A stretch of 64,000 nt of DNA, taken from the NCBI RefSeq assembly GCF_054482595.1, contig NZ_CM137008.1. One strand, 5' to 3'. Positions 1-10,343 of this stretch are shown here, piece after piece (the stretch's first letter is position 1; each line of letters opens with the position of its first letter). The notes beneath the pieces are model-generated. The model was given only the letters and a program-made list of their open reading frames with translations. It had not been told where the DNA came from and made no database searches. A program made the translations under genes and the position numbers.

Positions 1-182
1 GTGTTCAGGGGGCGGATATGAAGACGCTGGCACAAATTAGCGTTCGTCAGCCTTTGCCTCTGCAAGGATTACAATTCCGTGAACTGTTTAGCTGGTTATC
101 CAGTTCGCTGCGTTCGGTTTCCCGCTCCACGCCGGGAACGGAAGTTGTGCTGGAAGCGCCAAAAGGCTGGACGTCAGTGTGA
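1..182 (+). CDS. yegL: vWA-domain protein YegL, 3' end only (partial)
   Basis: Frame 3 is open from the window edge to TGA at 180-182; position upstream of yegK matches K-12 order; stop overlaps the GTG start of next gene. Confidence 0.6.
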
Positions 183-940
183 GCTGGCGTCTGGTCTATG
201 CATCAACCGTTGGAACGTCGCACATCAGCGCGGACTTGCCTTGTCAGGATGCCTGCCAGATGCAGATTGCCTGGTTAAATGACCAGCAGCCATTATTGTC
301 GGTATTTGTCGCTGATGGCGCAGGCAGTGTCTCGCAGGGTGGCGAAGGCGCGATGCTCGCCGTCAATGAAGCGATGGCTTATATGTCGCAAAAAGTGCAG
401 GGCGGGGAATTGGGGCTTAATGATGTCCTCGCCACAAATATGGTACTGACCATTCGTCAACGACTTTTTGCCGAGGCGGAAGCCAAAGAATTAGCGGTTC
501 GCGATTTTGCCTGCACATTTCTGGGACTGATTTCATCGCCTGACGGCACCTTGATTATGCAGATTGGCGATGGCGGCGTGGTGGTAGATTTGGGTCACGG
601 TCTGCAATTGCCTCTCACGCCGATGGCGGGTGAATATGCCAACATGACGCATTTCATTACCGACGAAGATGCCGTTTCCAGACTGGAAACTTTCACCAGC
701 ACTGGGCGTGCGCACAAAGTTGCAGCATTTACGGATGGTATCCAGCGACTGGCGTTAAATATGCTGGATAATTCTCCTCATGTGCCTTTCTTTACCCCGT
801 TTTTCAATGGACTGGCGGCAGCAACGCAGGAACAACTCGATTTATTACCTGAATTGTTAAAGCAGTTTTTGTCCAGCCCGGCGGTAAACGAGCGTACGGA
901 TGATGATAAAACGTTGGCACTGGCGCTGTGGGCAGAGTGA
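179..940 (+). CDS. yegK: PP2C-family Ser/Thr protein phosphatase
   Basis: 253-aa ORF with GTG start; metal-binding motifs typical of PP2C (VADGAGS, DG near C-term); K-12 yegK/pphC length and position. Confidence 0.85.
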
Positions 941-949
941 GTTTCTCAT

Positions 950-977
950 GGCGGTTGAAGACAACAATTCAACCGCC
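950..977. terminator. Hairpin between convergent yegK and yegJ, possible bidirectional terminator
   Basis: 10-bp inverted repeat ggcggttgaa / ttcaaccgcc with 8-nt loop; weak T-run. Confidence 0.4.
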
Positions 978-1004
978 AGTTTAAACAATAAATATAACGG
1001 CTGA

Positions 1005-1466
1005 TTAGCGAACTAATTTTGCTCTTAGCTCGTCGGCTTCTTCTTTTGGATAGGTGACCAATAAAGGATCAATGGTATAACCGCCGTAAATTTTATCCCC
1101 GCGCGTATACATCCAGTCTGAAATATCTTCTTTCTTGATTTTCCACTCCTGGCCATATTCTACGTTTGTAACAATACCAGGGTCATTGCTGATTACGCCA
1201 ATAAACATGCCGTTAGAATAAGTGACATCCGTAAGCCAGAAATGCTCGGTTCTTCCGTGATCGGTTATCGGGGCTTTGACTGCGAAAGTATCGGCATCTT
1301 TTTTATTCATAACCTCGATGAATTTATCGGTTTCTTTCCGCGCATGTTTAATCGCGTCAGACATCGCTTGTTTATCATAACCTCCCGTCACTAACGTATC
1401 CGAAACTTCACTAAAGCCCGCGGTAGTAAAAAATAGCAGACTCAACATAAGTAATATCTTTTTCAT
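1005..1466 (-). CDS. yegJ: Exported DUF2314-like protein with N-terminal signal peptide
   Basis: 153-aa ORF, hydrophobic N-terminus MKKILLMLSLLFFTTAGFS; K-12 yegJ length and position. Confidence 0.85.
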   Translation of the reverse strand: MKKILLMLSLLFFTTAGFSEVSDTLVTGGYDKQAMSDAIKHARKETDKFIEVMNKKDADTFAVKAPITDHGRTEHFWLTDVTYSNGMFIGVISNDPGIVTNVEYGQEWKIKKEDISDWMYTRGDKIYGGYTIDPLLVTYPKEEADELRAKLVR

Positions 1467-1665
1467 TTTTTCTCCAGAATCCCTTTGTAGTCAAAGTTAG
1501 CAAAAACCTGTGGAAGTTAATCATTATCAGGCCGAAATTGAATTGTATCCTGATAAAATTGCATTATCATTTTTATTCTTGAGTGGGTTTTCCCCATATA
1601 GAAATAATTTTAATGGTTAGTTGTTATTATTCATTGAAATATAATATAACTACCCGCGAAATATT

Positions 1666-3612
1666 ATGAAAACAAATATAAAAGTATTTACATCGACAGG
1701 TGAATTGACCACTCTTGGCCGTGAACTGGGCAAAGGTGGTGAAGGCGCGGTTTATGATATCGAGGAGTTTGTCGATAGCGTCGCCAAGATTTATCACACG
1801 CCGCCACCCGCCTTAAAACAGGACAAACTTGCCTTTATGGCTGCGACAGCTGACGCGCAGTTGTTGAATTATGTCGCCTGGCCGCAGGCAACGCTTCACG
1901 GTGGACGAGGCGGAAAAGTTATCGGTTTTATGATGCCAAAAGTTTCTGGTAAAGAACCGATTCATATGATCTATAGCCCGGCACATCGTCGCCAGAGTTA
2001 CCCTCATTGTGCGTGGGATTTTCTACTCTATGTTGCGCGCAATATTGCTTCATCTTTTGCTACGGTTCACGAGCACGGGCACGTCGTGGGTGACGTAAAC
2101 CAGAACAGTTTTATGGTAGGTCGCGACAGCAAAGTGGTACTGATTGATAGCGACTCCTTTCAGATTAACGCCAATGGCACACTGCATTTATGCGAAGTCG
2201 GCGTGTCGCATTTTACGCCGCCAGAGCTACAAACCTTGTCGTCATTTGTCGGCTTTGAACGCACAGAAAATCACGATAATTTTGGCCTTGCGTTGCTGAT
2301 TTTTCACGTCTTGTTTGGTGGCCGGCATCCTTATTCTGGTGTGCCGCTTATCTCTGATGCGGGTAATGCGCTGGAGACGGATATTACCCATTTCCGTTAT
2401 GCCTACGCGTCAGATAATCAGCGACGTGGTTTAAAACCGCCGCCACGATCGATTCCGCTATCGATGTTACCGAGTGATGTTGAAGCCATGTTTCAGCAGG
2501 CATTCACGGAAAGTGGCGTGGCAACCGGGCGTCCGACGGCTAAAGCGTGGGTAGCGGCACTTGATTCTCTGCGCCAACAGTTAAAGAAATGTCCCGTTTC
2601 GGCAATGCATGTTTATCCCGCTCATTTGACCGACTGCCCGTGGTGTGCGCTGGATAATCAAGGCGTTATCTATTTTATTGATCTCGGCGAAGAGGTCATT
2701 ACCACCAGCGGTGATTTTGTGCTGGCGAAAGTCTGGGCGATGGTGATGGCGTCAGTAGCACCGCCAGCATTGCAATTGCCATTACCCGATCATTTCCAAC
2801 CGACTGGCAGGCCGCTTCCTTTAGGCCTGTTACGGCGCGAATACATCATTCTGATTGAGATCGCACTGTCAGCGTTATCGCTGTTGCTTTGCGGCCTTCA
2901 GGCAGAACCGCGTTATATTATTTTGGTTCCTGTGCTGTCGGCTATCTGGATTATTGGCAGTCTGACAAGCAAAGCGTACAAAGCAGAAGTTCAGCAACGC
3001 CGTGAGGCATTTAATCGCGCGAAAATGGACTATGACCATTTAGTCAGCCAGATCCAACAGTTGGGCGGGCTGGAAGGTTTTATCGCCAAACGGACGATGC
3101 TCGAAAAAATGAAGGACGAAATGCTCGGGTTACCGGAAGAAGAAAAACGTGCTCTGGCAGCACTTCACGACACCGCAAGGGAACGGCAGAAGCAGAAGTT
3201 TCTGGAGGGATTTTTTATTGATGTTGCCTCTATTCCCGGCGTTGGCCCTGCGCGTAAAGCGGCGTTACGGTCCTTTGGTATTGAAACAGCAGCGGATGTT
3301 ACCCGTCGTGGGGTTAAGCAAGTGAAAGGGTTTGGTGATCATCTGACCCAGGCAGTTATCGACTGGAAAGCAAGTTGCGAACGCCGTTTTGTGTTCAGGC
3401 CGAATGAAGCGGTAACGCCAGCAGACAGACAAGCGGTAATGGCGAAAATGACCGCCAAACGACATCGGCTGGAATCGACGTTGACTGTCGGCGCGACAGA
3501 GTTGCAGCGATTCCGCCTTCATGCTCCAGCACGGACCATGCCGTTGATGGAACCGTTACGTCAGGCGGCAGAAAAACTGACTCAGGCGCAGGCTGATTTA
3601 AGCCGCTGCTGA
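1666..3612 (+). CDS. yegI: Ser/Thr protein kinase-like protein with two predicted TM helices and C-terminal helix-hairpin-helix
   Basis: 648-aa ORF; kinase-like N-terminal region (GKGGEGAVY glycine loop, HGHVVGDVN catalytic-loop-like); hydrophobic segments ~2836-2970; HhH-like IPGVGPARKAALRSFGIETAADV. Confidence 0.9.
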   Translation: MKTNIKVFTSTGELTTLGRELGKGGEGAVYDIEEFVDSVAKIYHTPPPALKQDKLAFMAATADAQLLNYVAWPQATLHGGRGGKVIGFMMPKVSGKEPIHMIYSPAHRRQSYPHCAWDFLLYVARNIASSFATVHEHGHVVGDVNQNSFMVGRDSKVVLIDSDSFQINANGTLHLCEVGVSHFTPPELQTLSSFVGFERTENHDNFGLALLIFHVLFGGRHPYSGVPLISDAGNALETDITHFRYAYASDNQRRGLKPPPRSIPLSMLPSDVEAMFQQAFTESGVATGRPTAKAWVAALDSLRQQLKKCPVSAMHVYPAHLTDCPWCALDNQGVIYFIDLGEEVITTSGDFVLAKVWAMVMASVAPPALQLPLPDHFQPTGRPLPLGLLRREYIILIEIALSALSLLLCGLQAEPRYIILVPVLSAIWIIGSLTSKAYKAEVQQRREAFNRAKMDYDHLVSQIQQLGGLEGFIAKRTMLEKMKDEMLGLPEEEKRALAALHDTARERQKQKFLEGFFIDVASIPGVGPARKAALRSFGIETAADVTRRGVKQVKGFGDHLTQAVIDWKASCERRFVFRPNEAVTPADRQAVMAKMTAKRHRLESTLTVGATELQRFRLHAPARTMPLMEPLRQAAEKLTQAQADLSRC

Positions 3613-3623
3613 GCCATTTTCTT

Positions 3624-4976
3624 TTAACGAAATACCACTTCTGCCCAGCGTGCCAGCCCGGCGGTGACGGAGCCAAAGTCATCGCCGCCTGCAATCGGAA
3701 TGCCCGGCAACTGTTCTGCCAGCGCTTTTTTAATCAGCGGCGAACGGGCGCTACCGCCGGTCAGGTAGATAACGTCCGGTTTTTCCTGGGCGTTATCCAG
3801 CGCCAGTTGCACCTGTTCCAGAATCCGCGCCAGTGGCTGGCTGAGGGCGCTTTCCAGCCCTTGCTGGCTAATCAGCGTAGCCAGTTCATCGCTGATAAAC
3901 GGCAGTGAGGCGCGGGTTTCCGCAGTGCTTGAAAGGGCGATTTTGCTCTCTTCTGCGCTACGCACCAGGCGATAGCTTAAACGCTGACGCCAGACTTTCT
4001 GTAACAGGGCCACTTTTTCCGGTTCGCGGGCATCGCGTACCAGATCGTTAAGCAGACGACCGTTGGCACTACTGTAGAAATCACTCTGTGCAGGAACGTC
4101 GTTGATGGCAACCGCATTCCACCACGGCAGAATCGGCAGGGCGATGCCTTTTTCGGTTTCGCCACCCATGCCCAGTAACGGCATCAGGTTTTTAAACGCC
4201 AGCGCGATATCCAGATCGTTACCGCCAATACGGCAACCACTGTGACCCAGCAGGCTGGCTTCACGATCGAGACGCGAACGCCACTGCGGCCCCATCAGCA
4301 GCAATGAACAGTCAGTCGTACCACCGCCGATATCCACCACCAGCACCCGTTTTTCTTCCTGCAAGGTGGCTTCGTAATCCAGCCCAGCCGCGACCGGCTC
4401 GTACTGGAATACCACGTCCCTGAATCCGGCACGCTTCGCCGCGCGTTCCAGAATCCCTTGCGCCTGGGTGTTTGCTTCATCACCGCCCAGCCCCTGGAAG
4501 TTGATCGGACGACCAATCACCGCCTGAGTAATCGCTTCTGGCAGCTGTGCCTGCGCCTGCTGGCGAATGTGCAACATCATTGCGCAGACCAGATCCTCAA
4601 ACAGCGCTACCTGCTGCGGTTTTAAGCCGCTGGCACCGAGGAACGATTTTGGTGATTTCACAAACCACACTTCTTCTGGATCATCAATGTACTGTGCCAG
4701 TGAGGAAAGACCGAACTGCACGCTTTTCGCCGTAACATCGATATCTTCTTCGCGGTTATAACGAATCGCCCGACGTAACAGCGCCTGCGTTTCATCGTCG
4801 TCTGCCGGAACATCATGATGGCGGTACAGCCATTCGCTTACCGCTTCACGCGTTGGCGCGCAAAGCATTGAAGGCAGCAGCGTGCTGTCGTTTTCCATTT
4901 TTAGCAAATGCGGTTTACCGTCACGCATGACCGCCACTGAACAGTTTGCTGTACCGTAATCAAAACCAATAAACAC
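3624..4976 (-). CDS. yegD: Hsp70-family (actin-like ATPase) chaperone YegD
   Basis: 450-aa ORF, N-terminal FIGFDYGTANCSVAV phosphate-1 motif of Hsp70/actin fold. Confidence 0.9.
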   Translation of the reverse strand: MFIGFDYGTANCSVAVMRDGKPHLLKMENDSTLLPSMLCAPTREAVSEWLYRHHDVPADDDETQALLRRAIRYNREEDIDVTAKSVQFGLSSLAQYIDDPEEVWFVKSPKSFLGASGLKPQQVALFEDLVCAMMLHIRQQAQAQLPEAITQAVIGRPINFQGLGGDEANTQAQGILERAAKRAGFRDVVFQYEPVAAGLDYEATLQEEKRVLVVDIGGGTTDCSLLLMGPQWRSRLDREASLLGHSGCRIGGNDLDIALAFKNLMPLLGMGGETEKGIALPILPWWNAVAINDVPAQSDFYSSANGRLLNDLVRDAREPEKVALLQKVWRQRLSYRLVRSAEESKIALSSTAETRASLPFISDELATLISQQGLESALSQPLARILEQVQLALDNAQEKPDVIYLTGGSARSPLIKKALAEQLPGIPIAGGDDFGSVTAGLARWAEVVFR

Positions 4977-5109
4977 GAATTAATCCCCATGCCGGTGAAG
5001 AAGGGGCGTGACTTTAGCGAAATGTTGCCGTCGCGACAACCGGAATATGAAAGCAAAGCGTAGCGTCTGAATAACGTTTATGCTGAAAGCGGATGAATAA
5101 GGAGATGCG

Positions 5110-5958
5110 ATGTATACCCTGAACTGGCAGCCGCCGTATGACTGGTCGTGGATGTTGGGATTTCTCGCCGCCCGTGCGGTGAGCGGTGTGGAAACGGTCG
5201 CGGACAGTTATTATGCCCGTAGTCTGGCGGTGGGCGAATATCGCGGCGTGGTGACTGCTATTCCGGATATAGCCCGCCATACTCTGCACATAAATTTAAG
5301 TGCAGGTTTAGAACCTGTTGCCGCAGAGTGTCTGGCGAAAATGAGCCGCCTGTTTGATCTGCAATGTAACCCACAAATTGTTAACGGTGCGTTGGGCAGG
5401 TTAGGCGCGGCGCGGCCCGGATTGCGTTTACCCGGCAGTGTTGATGCTTTTGAGCAGGGCGTGCGGGCGATTTTAGGCCAACTGGTGAGCGTGGCGATGG
5501 CGGCAAAATTGACTGCCAAAGTGGTACAGCTTTATGGCGAACGGCTGGATGATTTTCCGGAGTATATCTGCTTCCCCACGCCTCAGCGGCTGGCAGCAGC
5601 CGACCCGCAGGCATTAAAAGCGTTAGGTATGCCGTTGAAACGGGCAGAGGCGCTGATTCATCTGGCAAATGCGGCGCTGGAGGGCACCTTACCAATGACA
5701 ATACCGGGCGATGTGGAGCAGGCGATGAAAACGCTGCAAACTTTTCCGGGTATCGGGCGCTGGACGGCGAATTATTTTGCTTTGCGTGGCTGGCAGACGA
5801 AAGATGTTTTCCTGCCGGATGATTATCTGATTAAACAGCGATTTCCGGGAATGACACCGGCACAAATCCGCCTTTATGCCGAACGCTGGAAGCCCTGGCG
5901 TTCTTATGCGCTGTTGCATATCTGGTATACGGAAGGCTGGCAACCAGACGAAGCATGA
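5110..5958 (+). CDS. alkA: 3-methyladenine DNA glycosylase II
   Basis: 282-aa ORF, HhH-GPD glycosylase region (FPGIGRWTANYFALRG), matches AlkA. Confidence 0.9.
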   Translation: MYTLNWQPPYDWSWMLGFLAARAVSGVETVADSYYARSLAVGEYRGVVTAIPDIARHTLHINLSAGLEPVAAECLAKMSRLFDLQCNPQIVNGALGRLGAARPGLRLPGSVDAFEQGVRAILGQLVSVAMAAKLTAKVVQLYGERLDDFPEYICFPTPQRLAAADPQALKALGMPLKRAEALIHLANAALEGTLPMTIPGDVEQAMKTLQTFPGIGRWTANYFALRGWQTKDVFLPDDYLIKQRFPGMTPAQIRLYAERWKPWRSYALLHIWYTEGWQPDEA

Positions 5959-5965
5959 CGTTGGT

Positions 5966-6050
5966 CGCCGGATGCGGTGCGAGCGCCTTATCCGGCCTGG
6001 AGAATGAGCGATTTGTAGGCATGATAAGACGCGTTAGCGTCGCATCAGGC
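5966..6050. repeat. REP (repetitive extragenic palindrome) pair between convergent alkA and dgcE
   Basis: gccggatgcg...cgccttatccggcc and gtaggc...gataagacgcg...cgtcgcatcaggc REP consensus. Confidence 0.7.
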
Positions 6051-6066
6051 GATGGGGAAGCACGCC

Positions 6067-9000
6067 TCAGTTAATCGCGAAATAACTACTATTCACCAGC
6101 AAATCCAGCGGTTGGGCATCGGCAATCACATCACCATAAATCAGATCGACGCCGATGCCAGAAAGCGTATCCATCACTAAGGGTAAAACGACTGGCCCGG
6201 CGATGGTTTTCATCCCGAGTCGCTGAGCGTGCCCCTGAATAATCGTAATCAGCATCTCATCCATCAAATTACCCTGCACGTTGGCGCATAACTCACCATC
6301 AAGTAGCAGGTAATCTGCCATATTCGCTTTCAGCGAGTTGAAGATTTGCAGATCGCGGCCCACCTGGCTGAGTATTATCCGACATCCCGCCAGCCGCAGT
6401 TTTTGCACGCTTTCTGCGTGATCTAAAATCGCTTCAGCCGGAATAATCAGATGTAATAACCGTGGTGGTAGAGGGCTATTTTCCAGCTGCTCAAGCAGAT
6501 CATTCACCAGCGTGGCGCTACTCAAACCGGCAACGGAAAGGGGGAGGGCGATGCTTATGCCTTTACTGGCAACCGCTTTTGCGGCCTGCTGGAAAAATTC
6601 GTGGAATACCCGGCGGTCAAAAGCATGGCTAAGCGCCGGATCGCTGAAGCTACGACGAAATGTTTGTTCATCAATAATCTCGCCTTCGCAACTCCAGAGC
6701 TTAAGTGAAATCAGCCACAAATTACGCGCTTCCGGGATCCGTGGCGAAGCGACACCGTGGGCCATCATCATCAACTGATTCTCTTTAATCATCCGCCACT
6801 GTTCATCAAGCGACATCGCCGCCCGTTCGCTATGTGCGGCAGCTTGCTGCGGTTCGTAAACCGTCACCCGGCCCCGGCCACCATTTTTGGAGGCATAACA
6901 GGCGATATCAGCCTGCGACATCACTTCTGCCGCCTGATGATTGTTGTCATCGATCAAGGTAATCCCGGCGCTGGCACCTACCCGATGTACACGTCCTTCC
7001 CAGATAAAGTGATAGTCATTCACAGCACTGATAATACGTGTAGCGATAAAACGCGCACTTTCGACATTGCAGTCTGGCAGCAGCAGACCAAATTCATCAC
7101 CGCCGAGCCGCGCCAGCACGTCGCTGGAGCGCAGCATGCTCAGCATCAACGACGCCAGTTCGCGCAGCAAAGCGTCGCCAGCGGCATGCCCGGCGCTGTC
7201 ATTCACCGCTTTAAAGCGATCAAGATCGATAAACACCAGTGCATGTCGCTGATGCGTACTGTTTACCGTTTGCAGCAGGATACGCAGTTGTTTCTCAAAA
7301 CTGGCGCGGTTGGCGAGATGCGTCAGTGCATCATGGGAGGCGCTGTAGCTCAGCTGGCGCAGCATTTTGCGTGATTCGGTAACGTCCTGAATCACCAGAA
7401 CCGAACCAATATTGCTGCCGTCCAGAGTACTTAACGGCGTAATACTGTAATGCACGTCGTAACTGCCGCCGCTCCGACAGTGCAACACCACATCTTGTTC
7501 GATCGCGGAACGTGAGGTGTCGGCACTGTAAATGTTCTCCATTAATGGTCCGTTGTCGCCAAAAGTAATATGCAACACCGTCAGGAGCGGAACACCTAAC
7601 GCTTCTTCCTGCGTCCAGCCGCTCATCTTCTCCGCCACTGGATTCATAAAGGTAATTTTCATCGCCATATCAATACAGACCACGGCTTCGCCGATGGAGT
7701 CCAGCGTAATGTGCAGGCGCTCTTTTTCCTGAAACAATGCCTCGTTAAGCTGTTTAACCTCGGTCATATCCATATTAATGCCGAGCAGGCGTTCGACTTC
7801 GCCTTCTTTATTCAGTACCCGGTTGGCGAGGGCGCGGATATGGCGGATGCCATCTTTCACGGCAATGCGAAATTCCAGCTTAAAGGGCGAGCGTGATTGC
7901 AACGAATCACGAATCACTTTTTCGGCATGCTGGCGATCTTCCGGCAGCACGCACTCGTACCACACCTGCCAGTTCGGTTTGATATGCGGAGGAATTTCAT
8001 ACAGCTCGAACATCCGCTTATCCCAGCTAAAAATATTCGGCTTCAACTCCCACTCCCAGATGCCAATCCCGCCCGCTTCGTTAGCCAGCGTGATGCGTTC
8101 CATCAGTTGCTGATTCACCTGTTCGGTGCGTTTTAGCTCGTTAATGTCTTCAATCTGAGCGATAAAATAGAGCGGCGTGCCATCCGTGTGGCGCACCAGT
8201 GAGACGGCAAGCAACGCCCAGACAACATCGCCATTACGGTTGTAGTAGCGTTTTTCCATTGAATAGGTGTTTATTTCACCGCTTATCAGCTTTTCAACCT
8301 GTTGGAGATCTTTATTGAGATCCTCCGGCCAGGTCAGTTGCTGAAAGGTGAGTCCGCGCAGCTCTTCCTGACTGTAACCGAGAAACTGGCAGAGTGCTTT
8401 GTTGGATTGCAGCCATTGTCCCTCGGTGCCCACTAATGCCATGCCGATGGCGGAATATTCCATGGCGTTCCGAAAGCGGGTTTCGCTTTCGGAAATGTGT
8501 TTGCGTTCCGCACGAAAGGCATACATCACCATGGTCATGATGTTGGCGGGCAGCAGGATCAGCAAAAACGGTAGCCACGGCATATGGGTCATCAGGTACG
8601 TACGCGGCGTAGCAAGCAGGGAGGGATCCGCGGCCATCATCAGCGACACCATCATCACCGTGGTAAGGAAGATCAAAAAGGCTTCCATTCGTGGCAGGCG
8701 CACGGCGCTCCACATCAACAGCACAATAATGAAAGTAAAAGGCCACGGCAGATACAGCATCGAAAGCCAGCTTAACGTCAGTGTGATGGCTAACGTAAGC
8801 AGCGACTCAAAAAGCAATCGTGGGTTGCGATGGCGCAGCAGATAGTGTGGTTTAAATAACAATCCCAGCGGCACCAGTGCCAGAGCGCCGATGGATTCTG
8901 ACAGTACCCATATCAAAAATGCCCTGAGAGGATCGTCTCCGGGCGTCAGCAGGACAACCAGAACACCCCCCAACAGAGGCGGAACAATGGCGCTGCCGAG

Positions 9001-9384
9001 TGCCAGACGCAGCCAGTCAGCCAGATTTTGCAAGGGGTTATACCACGGCAGCAATTTACGTAGCAGCACTGCCCCGACCACGGCTTCAACAATATTGATG
9101 GTCGTCCAGGTCATGTTCAGCGAGCTGGTGGAAAAAAGCAGGATGGATGCGGCGATATTTCCCAGCGAACAGCTCAGCGCAATTCCCGGCCACATGCGCC
9201 CGGCATGGCGATAAAACGCCACCATCATGATGGACGTCGGGAACCACAGTGGGGCGAGTTGGGTGCCAAACTGCGAAAGCTCAAGCGAGAAAAGGGTGAA
9301 GATAAACGAGACTAAACCTAAACTGACCAGGTGAAGCAGCGGGTGGGGCAGGGCAATTAATACATGCTGTGATTGTTTGCTCAT
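6067..9384 (-). CDS. dgcE: Diguanylate cyclase DgcE (MASE1-PAS-GGDEF with EAL-like C-terminus)
   Basis: 1105-aa ORF; multi-TM N-terminus, PAS regions, RLGGDEFGLLL GGDEF motif; K-12 yegE length. Confidence 0.9.
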   Translation of the reverse strand: MSKQSQHVLIALPHPLLHLVSLGLVSFIFTLFSLELSQFGTQLAPLWFPTSIMMVAFYRHAGRMWPGIALSCSLGNIAASILLFSTSSLNMTWTTINIVEAVVGAVLLRKLLPWYNPLQNLADWLRLALGSAIVPPLLGGVLVVLLTPGDDPLRAFLIWVLSESIGALALVPLGLLFKPHYLLRHRNPRLLFESLLTLAITLTLSWLSMLYLPWPFTFIIVLLMWSAVRLPRMEAFLIFLTTVMMVSLMMAADPSLLATPRTYLMTHMPWLPFLLILLPANIMTMVMYAFRAERKHISESETRFRNAMEYSAIGMALVGTEGQWLQSNKALCQFLGYSQEELRGLTFQQLTWPEDLNKDLQQVEKLISGEINTYSMEKRYYNRNGDVVWALLAVSLVRHTDGTPLYFIAQIEDINELKRTEQVNQQLMERITLANEAGGIGIWEWELKPNIFSWDKRMFELYEIPPHIKPNWQVWYECVLPEDRQHAEKVIRDSLQSRSPFKLEFRIAVKDGIRHIRALANRVLNKEGEVERLLGINMDMTEVKQLNEALFQEKERLHITLDSIGEAVVCIDMAMKITFMNPVAEKMSGWTQEEALGVPLLTVLHITFGDNGPLMENIYSADTSRSAIEQDVVLHCRSGGSYDVHYSITPLSTLDGSNIGSVLVIQDVTESRKMLRQLSYSASHDALTHLANRASFEKQLRILLQTVNSTHQRHALVFIDLDRFKAVNDSAGHAAGDALLRELASLMLSMLRSSDVLARLGGDEFGLLLPDCNVESARFIATRIISAVNDYHFIWEGRVHRVGASAGITLIDDNNHQAAEVMSQADIACYASKNGGRGRVTVYEPQQAAAHSERAAMSLDEQWRMIKENQLMMMAHGVASPRIPEARNLWLISLKLWSCEGEIIDEQTFRRSFSDPALSHAFDRRVFHEFFQQAAKAVASKGISIALPLSVAGLSSATLVNDLLEQLENSPLPPRLLHLIIPAEAILDHAESVQKLRLAGCRIILSQVGRDLQIFNSLKANMADYLLLDGELCANVQGNLMDEMLITIIQGHAQRLGMKTIAGPVVLPLVMDTLSGIGVDLIYGDVIADAQPLDLLVNSSYFAIN

Positions 9385-9701
9385 TACCGCTTTATCCGCA
9401 AGACCTGGTCGCCAGTATTCGTTTCTGTGTTTATGCTAGTACAAAAGTTTTACATTTTATATGCGAATTGCTCATAAAGTGACGTAAAGGCGGATAATTT
9501 GCGCAACTGCGTATAACATTTTTTACCTTACATAAAACTGATCAATGTAATTTGCCACCGGGAATTCTTCGTCAACAATTAACTCTGAGCGCGCGGCAAC
9601 GCTATTCGACTGGTATCAGGCGGATGAAATCCCTATAATTGCCGCGTTTGGCGCTTCGTCGCCCCCTTCCTAACATCCAGGTTAATCAGGTCGCTAAATA
9701 T

Positions 9702-10343
9702 ATGACTGATCAGTCTCATCAGTGCGTCATTATCGGTATCGCTGGCGCATCGGCTTCCGGCAAGAGTCTTATTGCCAGTACCCTTTATCGTGAATTACGT
9801 GAGCAAGTCGGTGATGAACACATCGGCGTAATTCCCGAAGACTGCTATTACAAAGATCAAAGCCATCTGTCGATGGAAGAACGCGTTAAGACCAACTACG
9901 ACCATCCCAGCGCGATGGATCACAGCCTGCTGCTTGAGCATTTACAAGCGTTGAAACGCGGCTCGGCAATTGACCTGCCGGTTTACAGCTATGTTGAACA
10001 TACGCGTATGAAAGAAACGGTGACGGTTGAGCCGAAGAAGGTCATCATTCTCGAAGGCATTTTGTTGCTGACGGATGCGCGTTTGCGTGACGAACTTAAC
10101 TTCTCCATTTTCGTTGATACCCCGCTGGATATCTGCCTGATGCGCCGCATCAAGCGTGACGTTAACGAGCGTGGGCGTTCAATGGATTCAGTGATGGCGC
10201 AATATCAAAAAACCGTGCGCCCGATGTTCCTGCAATTCATTGAGCCTTCTAAACAATATGCGGACATTATCGTGCCGCGCGGCGGGAAAAACCGCATCGC
10301 GATCGATATATTGAAAGCGAAAATAAGTCAGTTCTTTGAATAA
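9702..10343 (+). CDS. udk: Uridine/cytidine kinase
   Basis: 213 aa from ATG at 9702 ([23 protein letters not shown]-loop); the track ORF start at 9639 is an upstream extension. Confidence 0.95.

Follow-up and report, generated by a model that had tools for sequence, protein, structure and literature searches.

The minus strand of a 64,000-nucleotide stretch of E. coli DNA (hereafter the window) encodes, between positions 6067 and 9384, a diguanylate cyclase that ends in an EAL-like domain. The initial annotation could find no canonical EAL signature in that domain and proposed that it is catalytically inactive and serves a regulatory role. The locus thus raises a series of questions: whether the domain is still an EAL domain at all, whether it can hydrolyse or bind c-di-GMP and, if it does neither, what keeps it in the protein.

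The dgcE gene and its surroundings

The reading frame (1105 codons plus stop) is dgcE, also called yegE. The annotated dgcE genes of many E. coli strains are 100 % identical to it, and its product matches the NCBIfam equivalog NF007298 over residues 1–1105 (profile positions 1–1111 covered) with 2068.4 bits against a cut-off of 1135, a whole-length match exceeding the curated threshold that places it in the DgcE orthologue group. Of 5426 complete E. coli genomes, 5416 carry the gene. Matching the neighbouring reading frames of the window to the annotated dgcE context of strain 99-3165 gave the usual E. coli arrangement, with udk-dcd upstream and alkA-yegD-yegI downstream.

Among the downstream neighbours, yegD (3624–4976, minus strand) encodes an Hsp70-like protein of 450 aa and yegI (1666–3612, plus strand) a protein kinase-like product of 648 aa. 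In the annotated genome these are followed by pphC and yegL, and the resulting kinase/phosphatase/vWA cluster adjoining dgcE belongs to the ordinary surroundings of the gene in E. coli. The alkA and dgcE genes are convergent and separated by 108 bp (5959–6066), a gap in which a simple scan detected neither a consensus intrinsic terminator nor a promoter-like site. The gene called as alkA-like in the Salmonella loci extends about 30 nt into the 3' end of dgcE. An Rfam scan of positions 5000–10000 matched no family. Two antisense open reading frames (6512–6778 and 6757–7374) were judged to be spurious, as both lie wholly inside dgcE, a gene under purifying selection.

An intact diguanylate cyclase module

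The protein has the order MASE1-PAS-PAS-PAS-GGDEF followed by the degenerate EAL domain. The MASE1 membrane domain occupies residues 19–294 (positions 8503–9330; Pfam PF05231, 124 bits) and is followed by a PAS region of three PAS domains at residues ~303–672 (7369–8478), recognised by the Pfam families PAS, PAS_3, PAS_4 and PAS_9 and, in three stretches, by TIGR00229. The GGDEF domain (residues 682–838, positions 6871–7341) matches PF00990 with 155.8 bits over profile positions 1–160 of 161.

The active-site motif GGDEF, which had been reported as intact within RLGGDEFGLLL, is indeed present as residues 761–765 (7090–7104); it is invariant in 11 E. coli alleles and occurs in all ten full-length relatives examined. 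Five residues upstream, in the context LRSSDVLARLGGDEF, lies the RxxD I-site RSSD (residues 752–755, positions 7120–7131), and the same RSSD/VLARL/GGDEF combination has been tabulated for dgcE (PMC11327459). The protein therefore carries the motif pair of an active diguanylate cyclase, a GG[D/E]EF A-site with an RxxD I-site five residues upstream. The output of DgcE has been reported to require the GGDEF motif (PMC6510439).

The C-terminal domain retains the EAL fold

Behind the GGDEF domain, a short linker and the degenerate EAL domain (EALdeg) occupy positions 6070–6810, with the EAL-like domain starting near residue 859 (nucleotide ~6810) and running to residue 1105, as delimited with Pfam, AlphaFold2 and Foldseek. 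The interval to which the EAL-like region had first been assigned, 6067–6600, holds only residues 929–1105 and the stop codon, that is 177 aa and not the roughly 250 residues ascribed to it, and it leaves outside the position of the EAL motif (6706–6714) as well as those equivalent to Q161 and R179 of RocR.

The Pfam EAL profile PF00563 gives a weak yet significant match to residues 897–1088, with 74.9 bits against a gathering score of 31.3 (E=8e-21). The alignment is partial, and since it spans only profile positions 38–234 of 236, the motif-bearing start of the profile is left unaligned. Sequence matches of the domain in the PDB were all EAL-domain proteins, including FimX, RbdA/PA0861 and PA3825. 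An AlphaFold2 model built from a 28-sequence alignment is predicted with confidence (mean pLDDT 91.4, pTM 0.88), and its strands and helices alternate as in an EAL barrel. When this model was compared with the PDB by Foldseek, all 50 matches listed were EAL domains (TM 0.72–0.82, E down to 2e-15), the top ones being FimX, RbdA, TBD1265, LapD, MorA and RocR with TM values of 0.76–0.82. A significant profile match together with a modelled beta/alpha barrel assigns the domain to the EAL family; as far as the predicted structure goes, it is a real EAL domain that has retained its fold.

Loss of the catalytic and most recognition residues

Residues were scored with the RocR set of catalytic/metal and c-di-GMP recognition positions defined by Seshasayee et al. 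(PMC2952852). For this purpose the last 259 residues of DgcE were used as query in an exhaustive HMMER search, which yielded a 140-sequence domain alignment; the active E. coli phosphodiesterases PdeL and PdeH were added by hand as references. Both are absent from the set extracted by local phmmer with the DgcE domain as query, an indication of how strongly the domain has diverged. Full-length relatives were taken from an exhaustive search of representatives, a word-indexed homologue search having returned mostly fragments of 450 aa or less. A three-sequence MAFFT alignment of DgcE, PdeL and PdeH proved unreliable in the N-terminal third, where gaps scattered the EAL motifs, and was superseded by the 140-sequence alignment. 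In the latter PdeH is a few residues off at the EAL-motif column, with Q in place of the glutamate of its ELL motif; the placement of DgcE is unaffected.

None of the seven catalytic/metal residues is kept in DgcE. In RocR numbering, E175 is replaced by L891, N233 by P948, E265 by I980, E268 by A983, D295 by S1006, K316 by L1027 and E352 by G1063. Of the four recognition residues only one remains, D1029 as the equivalent of D318, the others being H876 for Q161, K895 for R179 (a conservative change) and Q1007 for D296. The residues equivalent to E322 and Q339 of PdeL are V1066 and Y1083. At the level of motifs, the EAL position (6706–6714) reads LIS, for L891-I892-S893, in a column where 99 of 100 distant relatives have E, and the DDFGTG loop position (6352–6369), a motif that metal coordination requires (PMC5301497), reads SQVGRD (S1006–D1011).

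The absence of an EAL signature is not a matter of chance, because the Pfam match is significant and the positions in question are kept in distant relatives. Each scored position is conserved in 92 to 100 of 100 more distant relatives, most of which score 10 or 11 of 11. In the AlphaFold2 model the substitutions map to predicted strands or their ends, the usual place of the active-site residues of the barrel. The domain accordingly has neither the seven-residue set of active EAL phosphodiesterases nor their E-A/V/L-L signature and DDFGTG loop, and it lacks the combination of Q161, R179, D296 and D318 that marks receptors of the FimX/LapD type, only the last being kept. The check suggested at the outset, a Pfam EAL alignment with inspection of the catalytic residues, thus joins a significant fold match to a complete loss of the catalytic set, the very opposite of the alignment with all EAL catalytic residues in place that would have spoken against degeneration. 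Judged by its residues, the domain is most probably inactive, and its retained fold makes the case for a dead EAL domain strong. Since all residues for metal binding and c-di-GMP hydrolysis have been lost, EALdeg should be unable to act as a phosphodiesterase.

Age of the degeneration and conservation between genera

The substitutions are old. Orthologues at 49–65 % identity carry the same catalytic-site substitutions as DgcE, and a Salmonella orthologue has the same alkA-yegD neighbours as in E. coli. Further out, down to about 24 % identity in the domain, members of the MASE1-PAS-GGDEF-EALdeg clade are equally degenerate, the replacing residues not always being the same; one of them, P0063 at 42 % identity, has dcd-udk and yegD as syntenic neighbours. 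The glycine that replaces the catalytic glutamate, G1063 in DgcE, is invariant in 18 of 18 clade members, and the position equivalent to R179, a lysine in E. coli DgcE, is an arginine in many orthologues. GGDEF is kept throughout the clade. The reading frame and the full length of the domain are likewise preserved across it, to about 24 % identity. That the degeneration is shared by the whole clade may be a small addition to published knowledge.

Outside the degenerate clade, the nearest relatives, with P0092 (1142 aa) the closest that has a complete EAL set, combine all 11 residues with an intact GGDEF motif and have the same length; the MASE1/PAS content of this long architecture was deduced from a full-length alignment. 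Because P0092 shares the long architecture, the DgcE lineage probably descends from an ancestor in which GGDEF and EAL were both intact.

Between E. coli and Salmonella, EALdeg gives pN 0.20 and pS 0.70, and hence a dN/dS of about 0.11, an approximate ratio as dS is saturated; against a 42 %-identical orthologue the ratio is about 0.23. By these values, purifying selection acts on the domain between genera. Together with MASE1, EALdeg is nonetheless the least conserved domain across the family, and its conservation is uneven. The most conserved block, residues 1009–1084 (positions 6133–6360), comprises alpha5, beta6, alpha6, beta7, alpha7 and beta8 and includes LMDEMLITIIQGHAQRLG and IAGPV. 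Among the 18 clade members its mean identity is 0.55 (0.68 in the alpha6 helix) versus 0.41 in the N-terminal part of the domain. The clade-specific motifs LMDEMxxTIIQGHAQR and IAGP are strongly conserved, and LMDEMLITIIQGHAQR, residues 1040–1056, lies inside the block.

Variation within E. coli

Positions 6070–6846 of the window (residues 846–1105) were compared with loci L004–L006 and L012–L018. Among 11 E. coli alleles, 32 of the 49 amino-acid-polymorphic codons of dgcE fall in EALdeg, a domain that accounts for 23.5 % of the length of DgcE. For every synonymous polymorphic codon there are 1.07 amino-acid-polymorphic ones in EALdeg and 0.12 in the remainder of the protein (Fisher p=3e-10, odds ratio 9.0). 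The variation is restricted to residues 848–1008 and 1085–1089, and the block 1009–1084 holds just one of the 32 codons. Pairwise dN/dS of EALdeg is 0.13–0.39 in five of six pairs and 1.8 between the window and K-12, the latter value resting on tiny counts. As far as these alleles tell, constraint on EALdeg within E. coli is much weaker than on the other domains of DgcE, and part of EALdeg may be close to neutral. The K-12 allele, which represents the same gene at 98.1 % DNA identity, has the same architecture, GGDEF motif and I-site and identical residues at all 11 catalytic-site-equivalent positions; six of its ten amino-acid differences lie in EALdeg, none at those positions.

The excess of polymorphism may reflect a relaxation of constraint, or else a regulatory surface under diversifying selection. 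A bolder reading makes residues ~848–1008 a hotspot of adaptive or relaxed variation around a fixed alpha5–beta8 part, with alleles that tune the strength of DgcE auto-inhibition or its choice of contact partners (e.g., PdeR); we regard this as speculative and rather unlikely. Were it correct, the thresholds at which individual strains produce curli and cellulose would depend on their natural EALdeg alleles. As an observation, the concentration of E. coli amino-acid polymorphism in the N-terminal part of EALdeg may be a second small addition to what has been published.

Two of 11 additional alleles sampled (12 with the window) are annotated as pseudogenes, L011 from E. coli O157:H7 (Z1769) and L016 from strain CE0026a; one is frameshifted, its in-frame translation first stopping at codon 178, and the other is interrupted by a stop at codon 124. 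Published work likewise describes dgcE as a pseudogene in Shigella flexneri and in several E. coli pathogens (PMC11327459). In a predicted protein of 427 aa (P0004) the end of GGDEF and EALdeg follow a transposase-like N-terminal segment (Pfam PF13737); this is probably a chimeric reading frame created by an IS insertion in dgcE. A Shigella sonnei 'putative sensor protein' of 296 aa (P0001), with 747 member sequences, resembles a truncated dgcE.

A dead enzyme probably kept as a regulatory module

That EALdeg is degenerate and inhibitory is already known for this very gene. Pfiffer et al. stated in 2019 that essentially all binding and catalytic residues of the domain are not conserved (PMC6510439). 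In the same study, deletion of the EAL domain raised both DgcE output and protein level, EALdeg dimerised in two-hybrid assays, and higher DgcE oligomers appeared only without the EAL domain. EALdeg exerted its effect independently of RdcA/RdcB, the activating GTPase system with MASE1 as its docking site, and steric interference with oligomerisation was put forward by the authors as a hypothesis (PMC6510439). The regulatory role proposed for the inactive domain thus finds its backing in published deletion genetics, with which purifying selection between genera is consistent. Taking fold, residues and genetics together, we hold with high confidence that the C-terminal domain of DgcE has an intact EAL fold, has lost the catalytic set, is no phosphodiesterase and is kept as a module for regulatory protein-protein interaction. 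The present analysis supplied the fold, the catalytic loss, the long standing of the degeneration and the signal of purifying selection; inhibition, self-interaction and the effect on oligomers come from the literature.

Other roles can be imagined for a domain with this history. The closest PDB matches by both sequence and fold include two inactive EAL domains that bind c-di-GMP, those of FimX and LapD, so that EALdeg could likewise be a receptor for c-di-GMP (or pGpG) and give DgcE product feedback by way of its C-terminal domain. The retained D1029 and the conservative lysine at the R179 position, an arginine in many orthologues, would fit. However, with a single recognition residue of four left and an RxxD I-site already available in DgcE for product feedback, a receptor of the FimX/LapD type is improbable. 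The seven metal/phosphate-site residues have all gone, including the glutamate of the EAL motif; the c-di-GMP-binding residues are not conserved according to Pfiffer et al. (PMC6510439), and Seshasayee et al. considered c-di-GMP binding unlikely in EAL-only proteins without a catalytic site (PMC2952852). Phosphodiesterase activity from a non-canonical active site has even less to recommend it and can be dismissed for practical purposes. Nothing beyond the retained fold speaks for it, the seven catalytic positions are now filled by small or hydrophobic residues (L, P, I, A, S, L, G), which cannot chelate Mg2+, and the deletion phenotype has been ascribed to oligomerisation and not to hydrolysis (PMC6510439).

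A further explanation holds that EALdeg is a functionless remnant, decaying neutrally since catalysis was lost. The crowding of E. coli amino-acid polymorphism into the domain, its pairwise dN/dS values within the species (including the 1.8 based on tiny counts) and its low rank, with MASE1, in family-wide conservation are what such decay might leave behind. Against this stand the dN/dS of ~0.11 to Salmonella and ~0.23 to the 42 %-identical orthologue, the preservation of the frame and of full domain length down to ~24 % identity, the confident AlphaFold2 model, and the strong conservation of LMDEMxxTIIQGHAQR and IAGP. Moreover, deletion of the domain has a gain-of-function phenotype (PMC6510439), and we consider neutral decay highly improbable, somewhat more so than ligand sensing.

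The regulatory interaction module can be pictured as follows. EALdeg self-associates and, on the published genetics, would inhibit DgcE by opposing a productive oligomerisation, which itself is driven by the PAS region and by docking of RdcA/RdcB on MASE1. The classic EAL dimer interface is formed by helices alpha5 and alpha6 (PMC5301497). Both fall in the most conserved EALdeg block, and for this reason residues 1009–1084 are likely to provide, by analogy, the self-association or inhibitory surface. The variable N-terminal part of the domain would have lost most of its constraint along with catalysis.

DgcE among other degenerate EAL proteins

Compared with active EAL phosphodiesterases such as RocR, PdeL/YahA, PdeH, TBD1265 and PA3825, DgcE shares the barrel fold (TM ~0.8) and the EAL profile over positions 38–234, but identity is only 12–28 %, and DgcE has substitutions at all seven catalytic/metal positions as well as in the EAL motif and the DDFGTG loop. 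FimX and LapD are likewise GGDEF-EAL proteins with a catalytically dead, regulatory EAL domain at the C-terminus, and they are among the nearest PDB matches. In these two proteins degeneration extends to the GGDEF domain, and c-di-GMP is sensed by the EAL domain. DgcE, in contrast, has an active GGDEF domain and an EAL-like domain without most of the recognition residues, and the role published for its EALdeg is inhibition through control of oligomers instead of ligand sensing (PMC6510439).

E. coli has other degenerate EAL proteins, namely RflP/YdiV, BluF/YcgF and CsrD (PMC5635695). With these DgcE shares the reuse of an EAL fold for macromolecular interactions without c-di-GMP turnover. However, they are stand-alone or differently combined proteins that act on external partners, whereas the domain of DgcE acts in cis on its own cyclase. 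Since its EAL domain is dead and both the GGDEF motif and the RxxD I-site are intact, DgcE would be a dedicated cyclase. The dead EAL domain would thus explain DgcE as a pure source of c-di-GMP, with the domain itself as a built-in brake.
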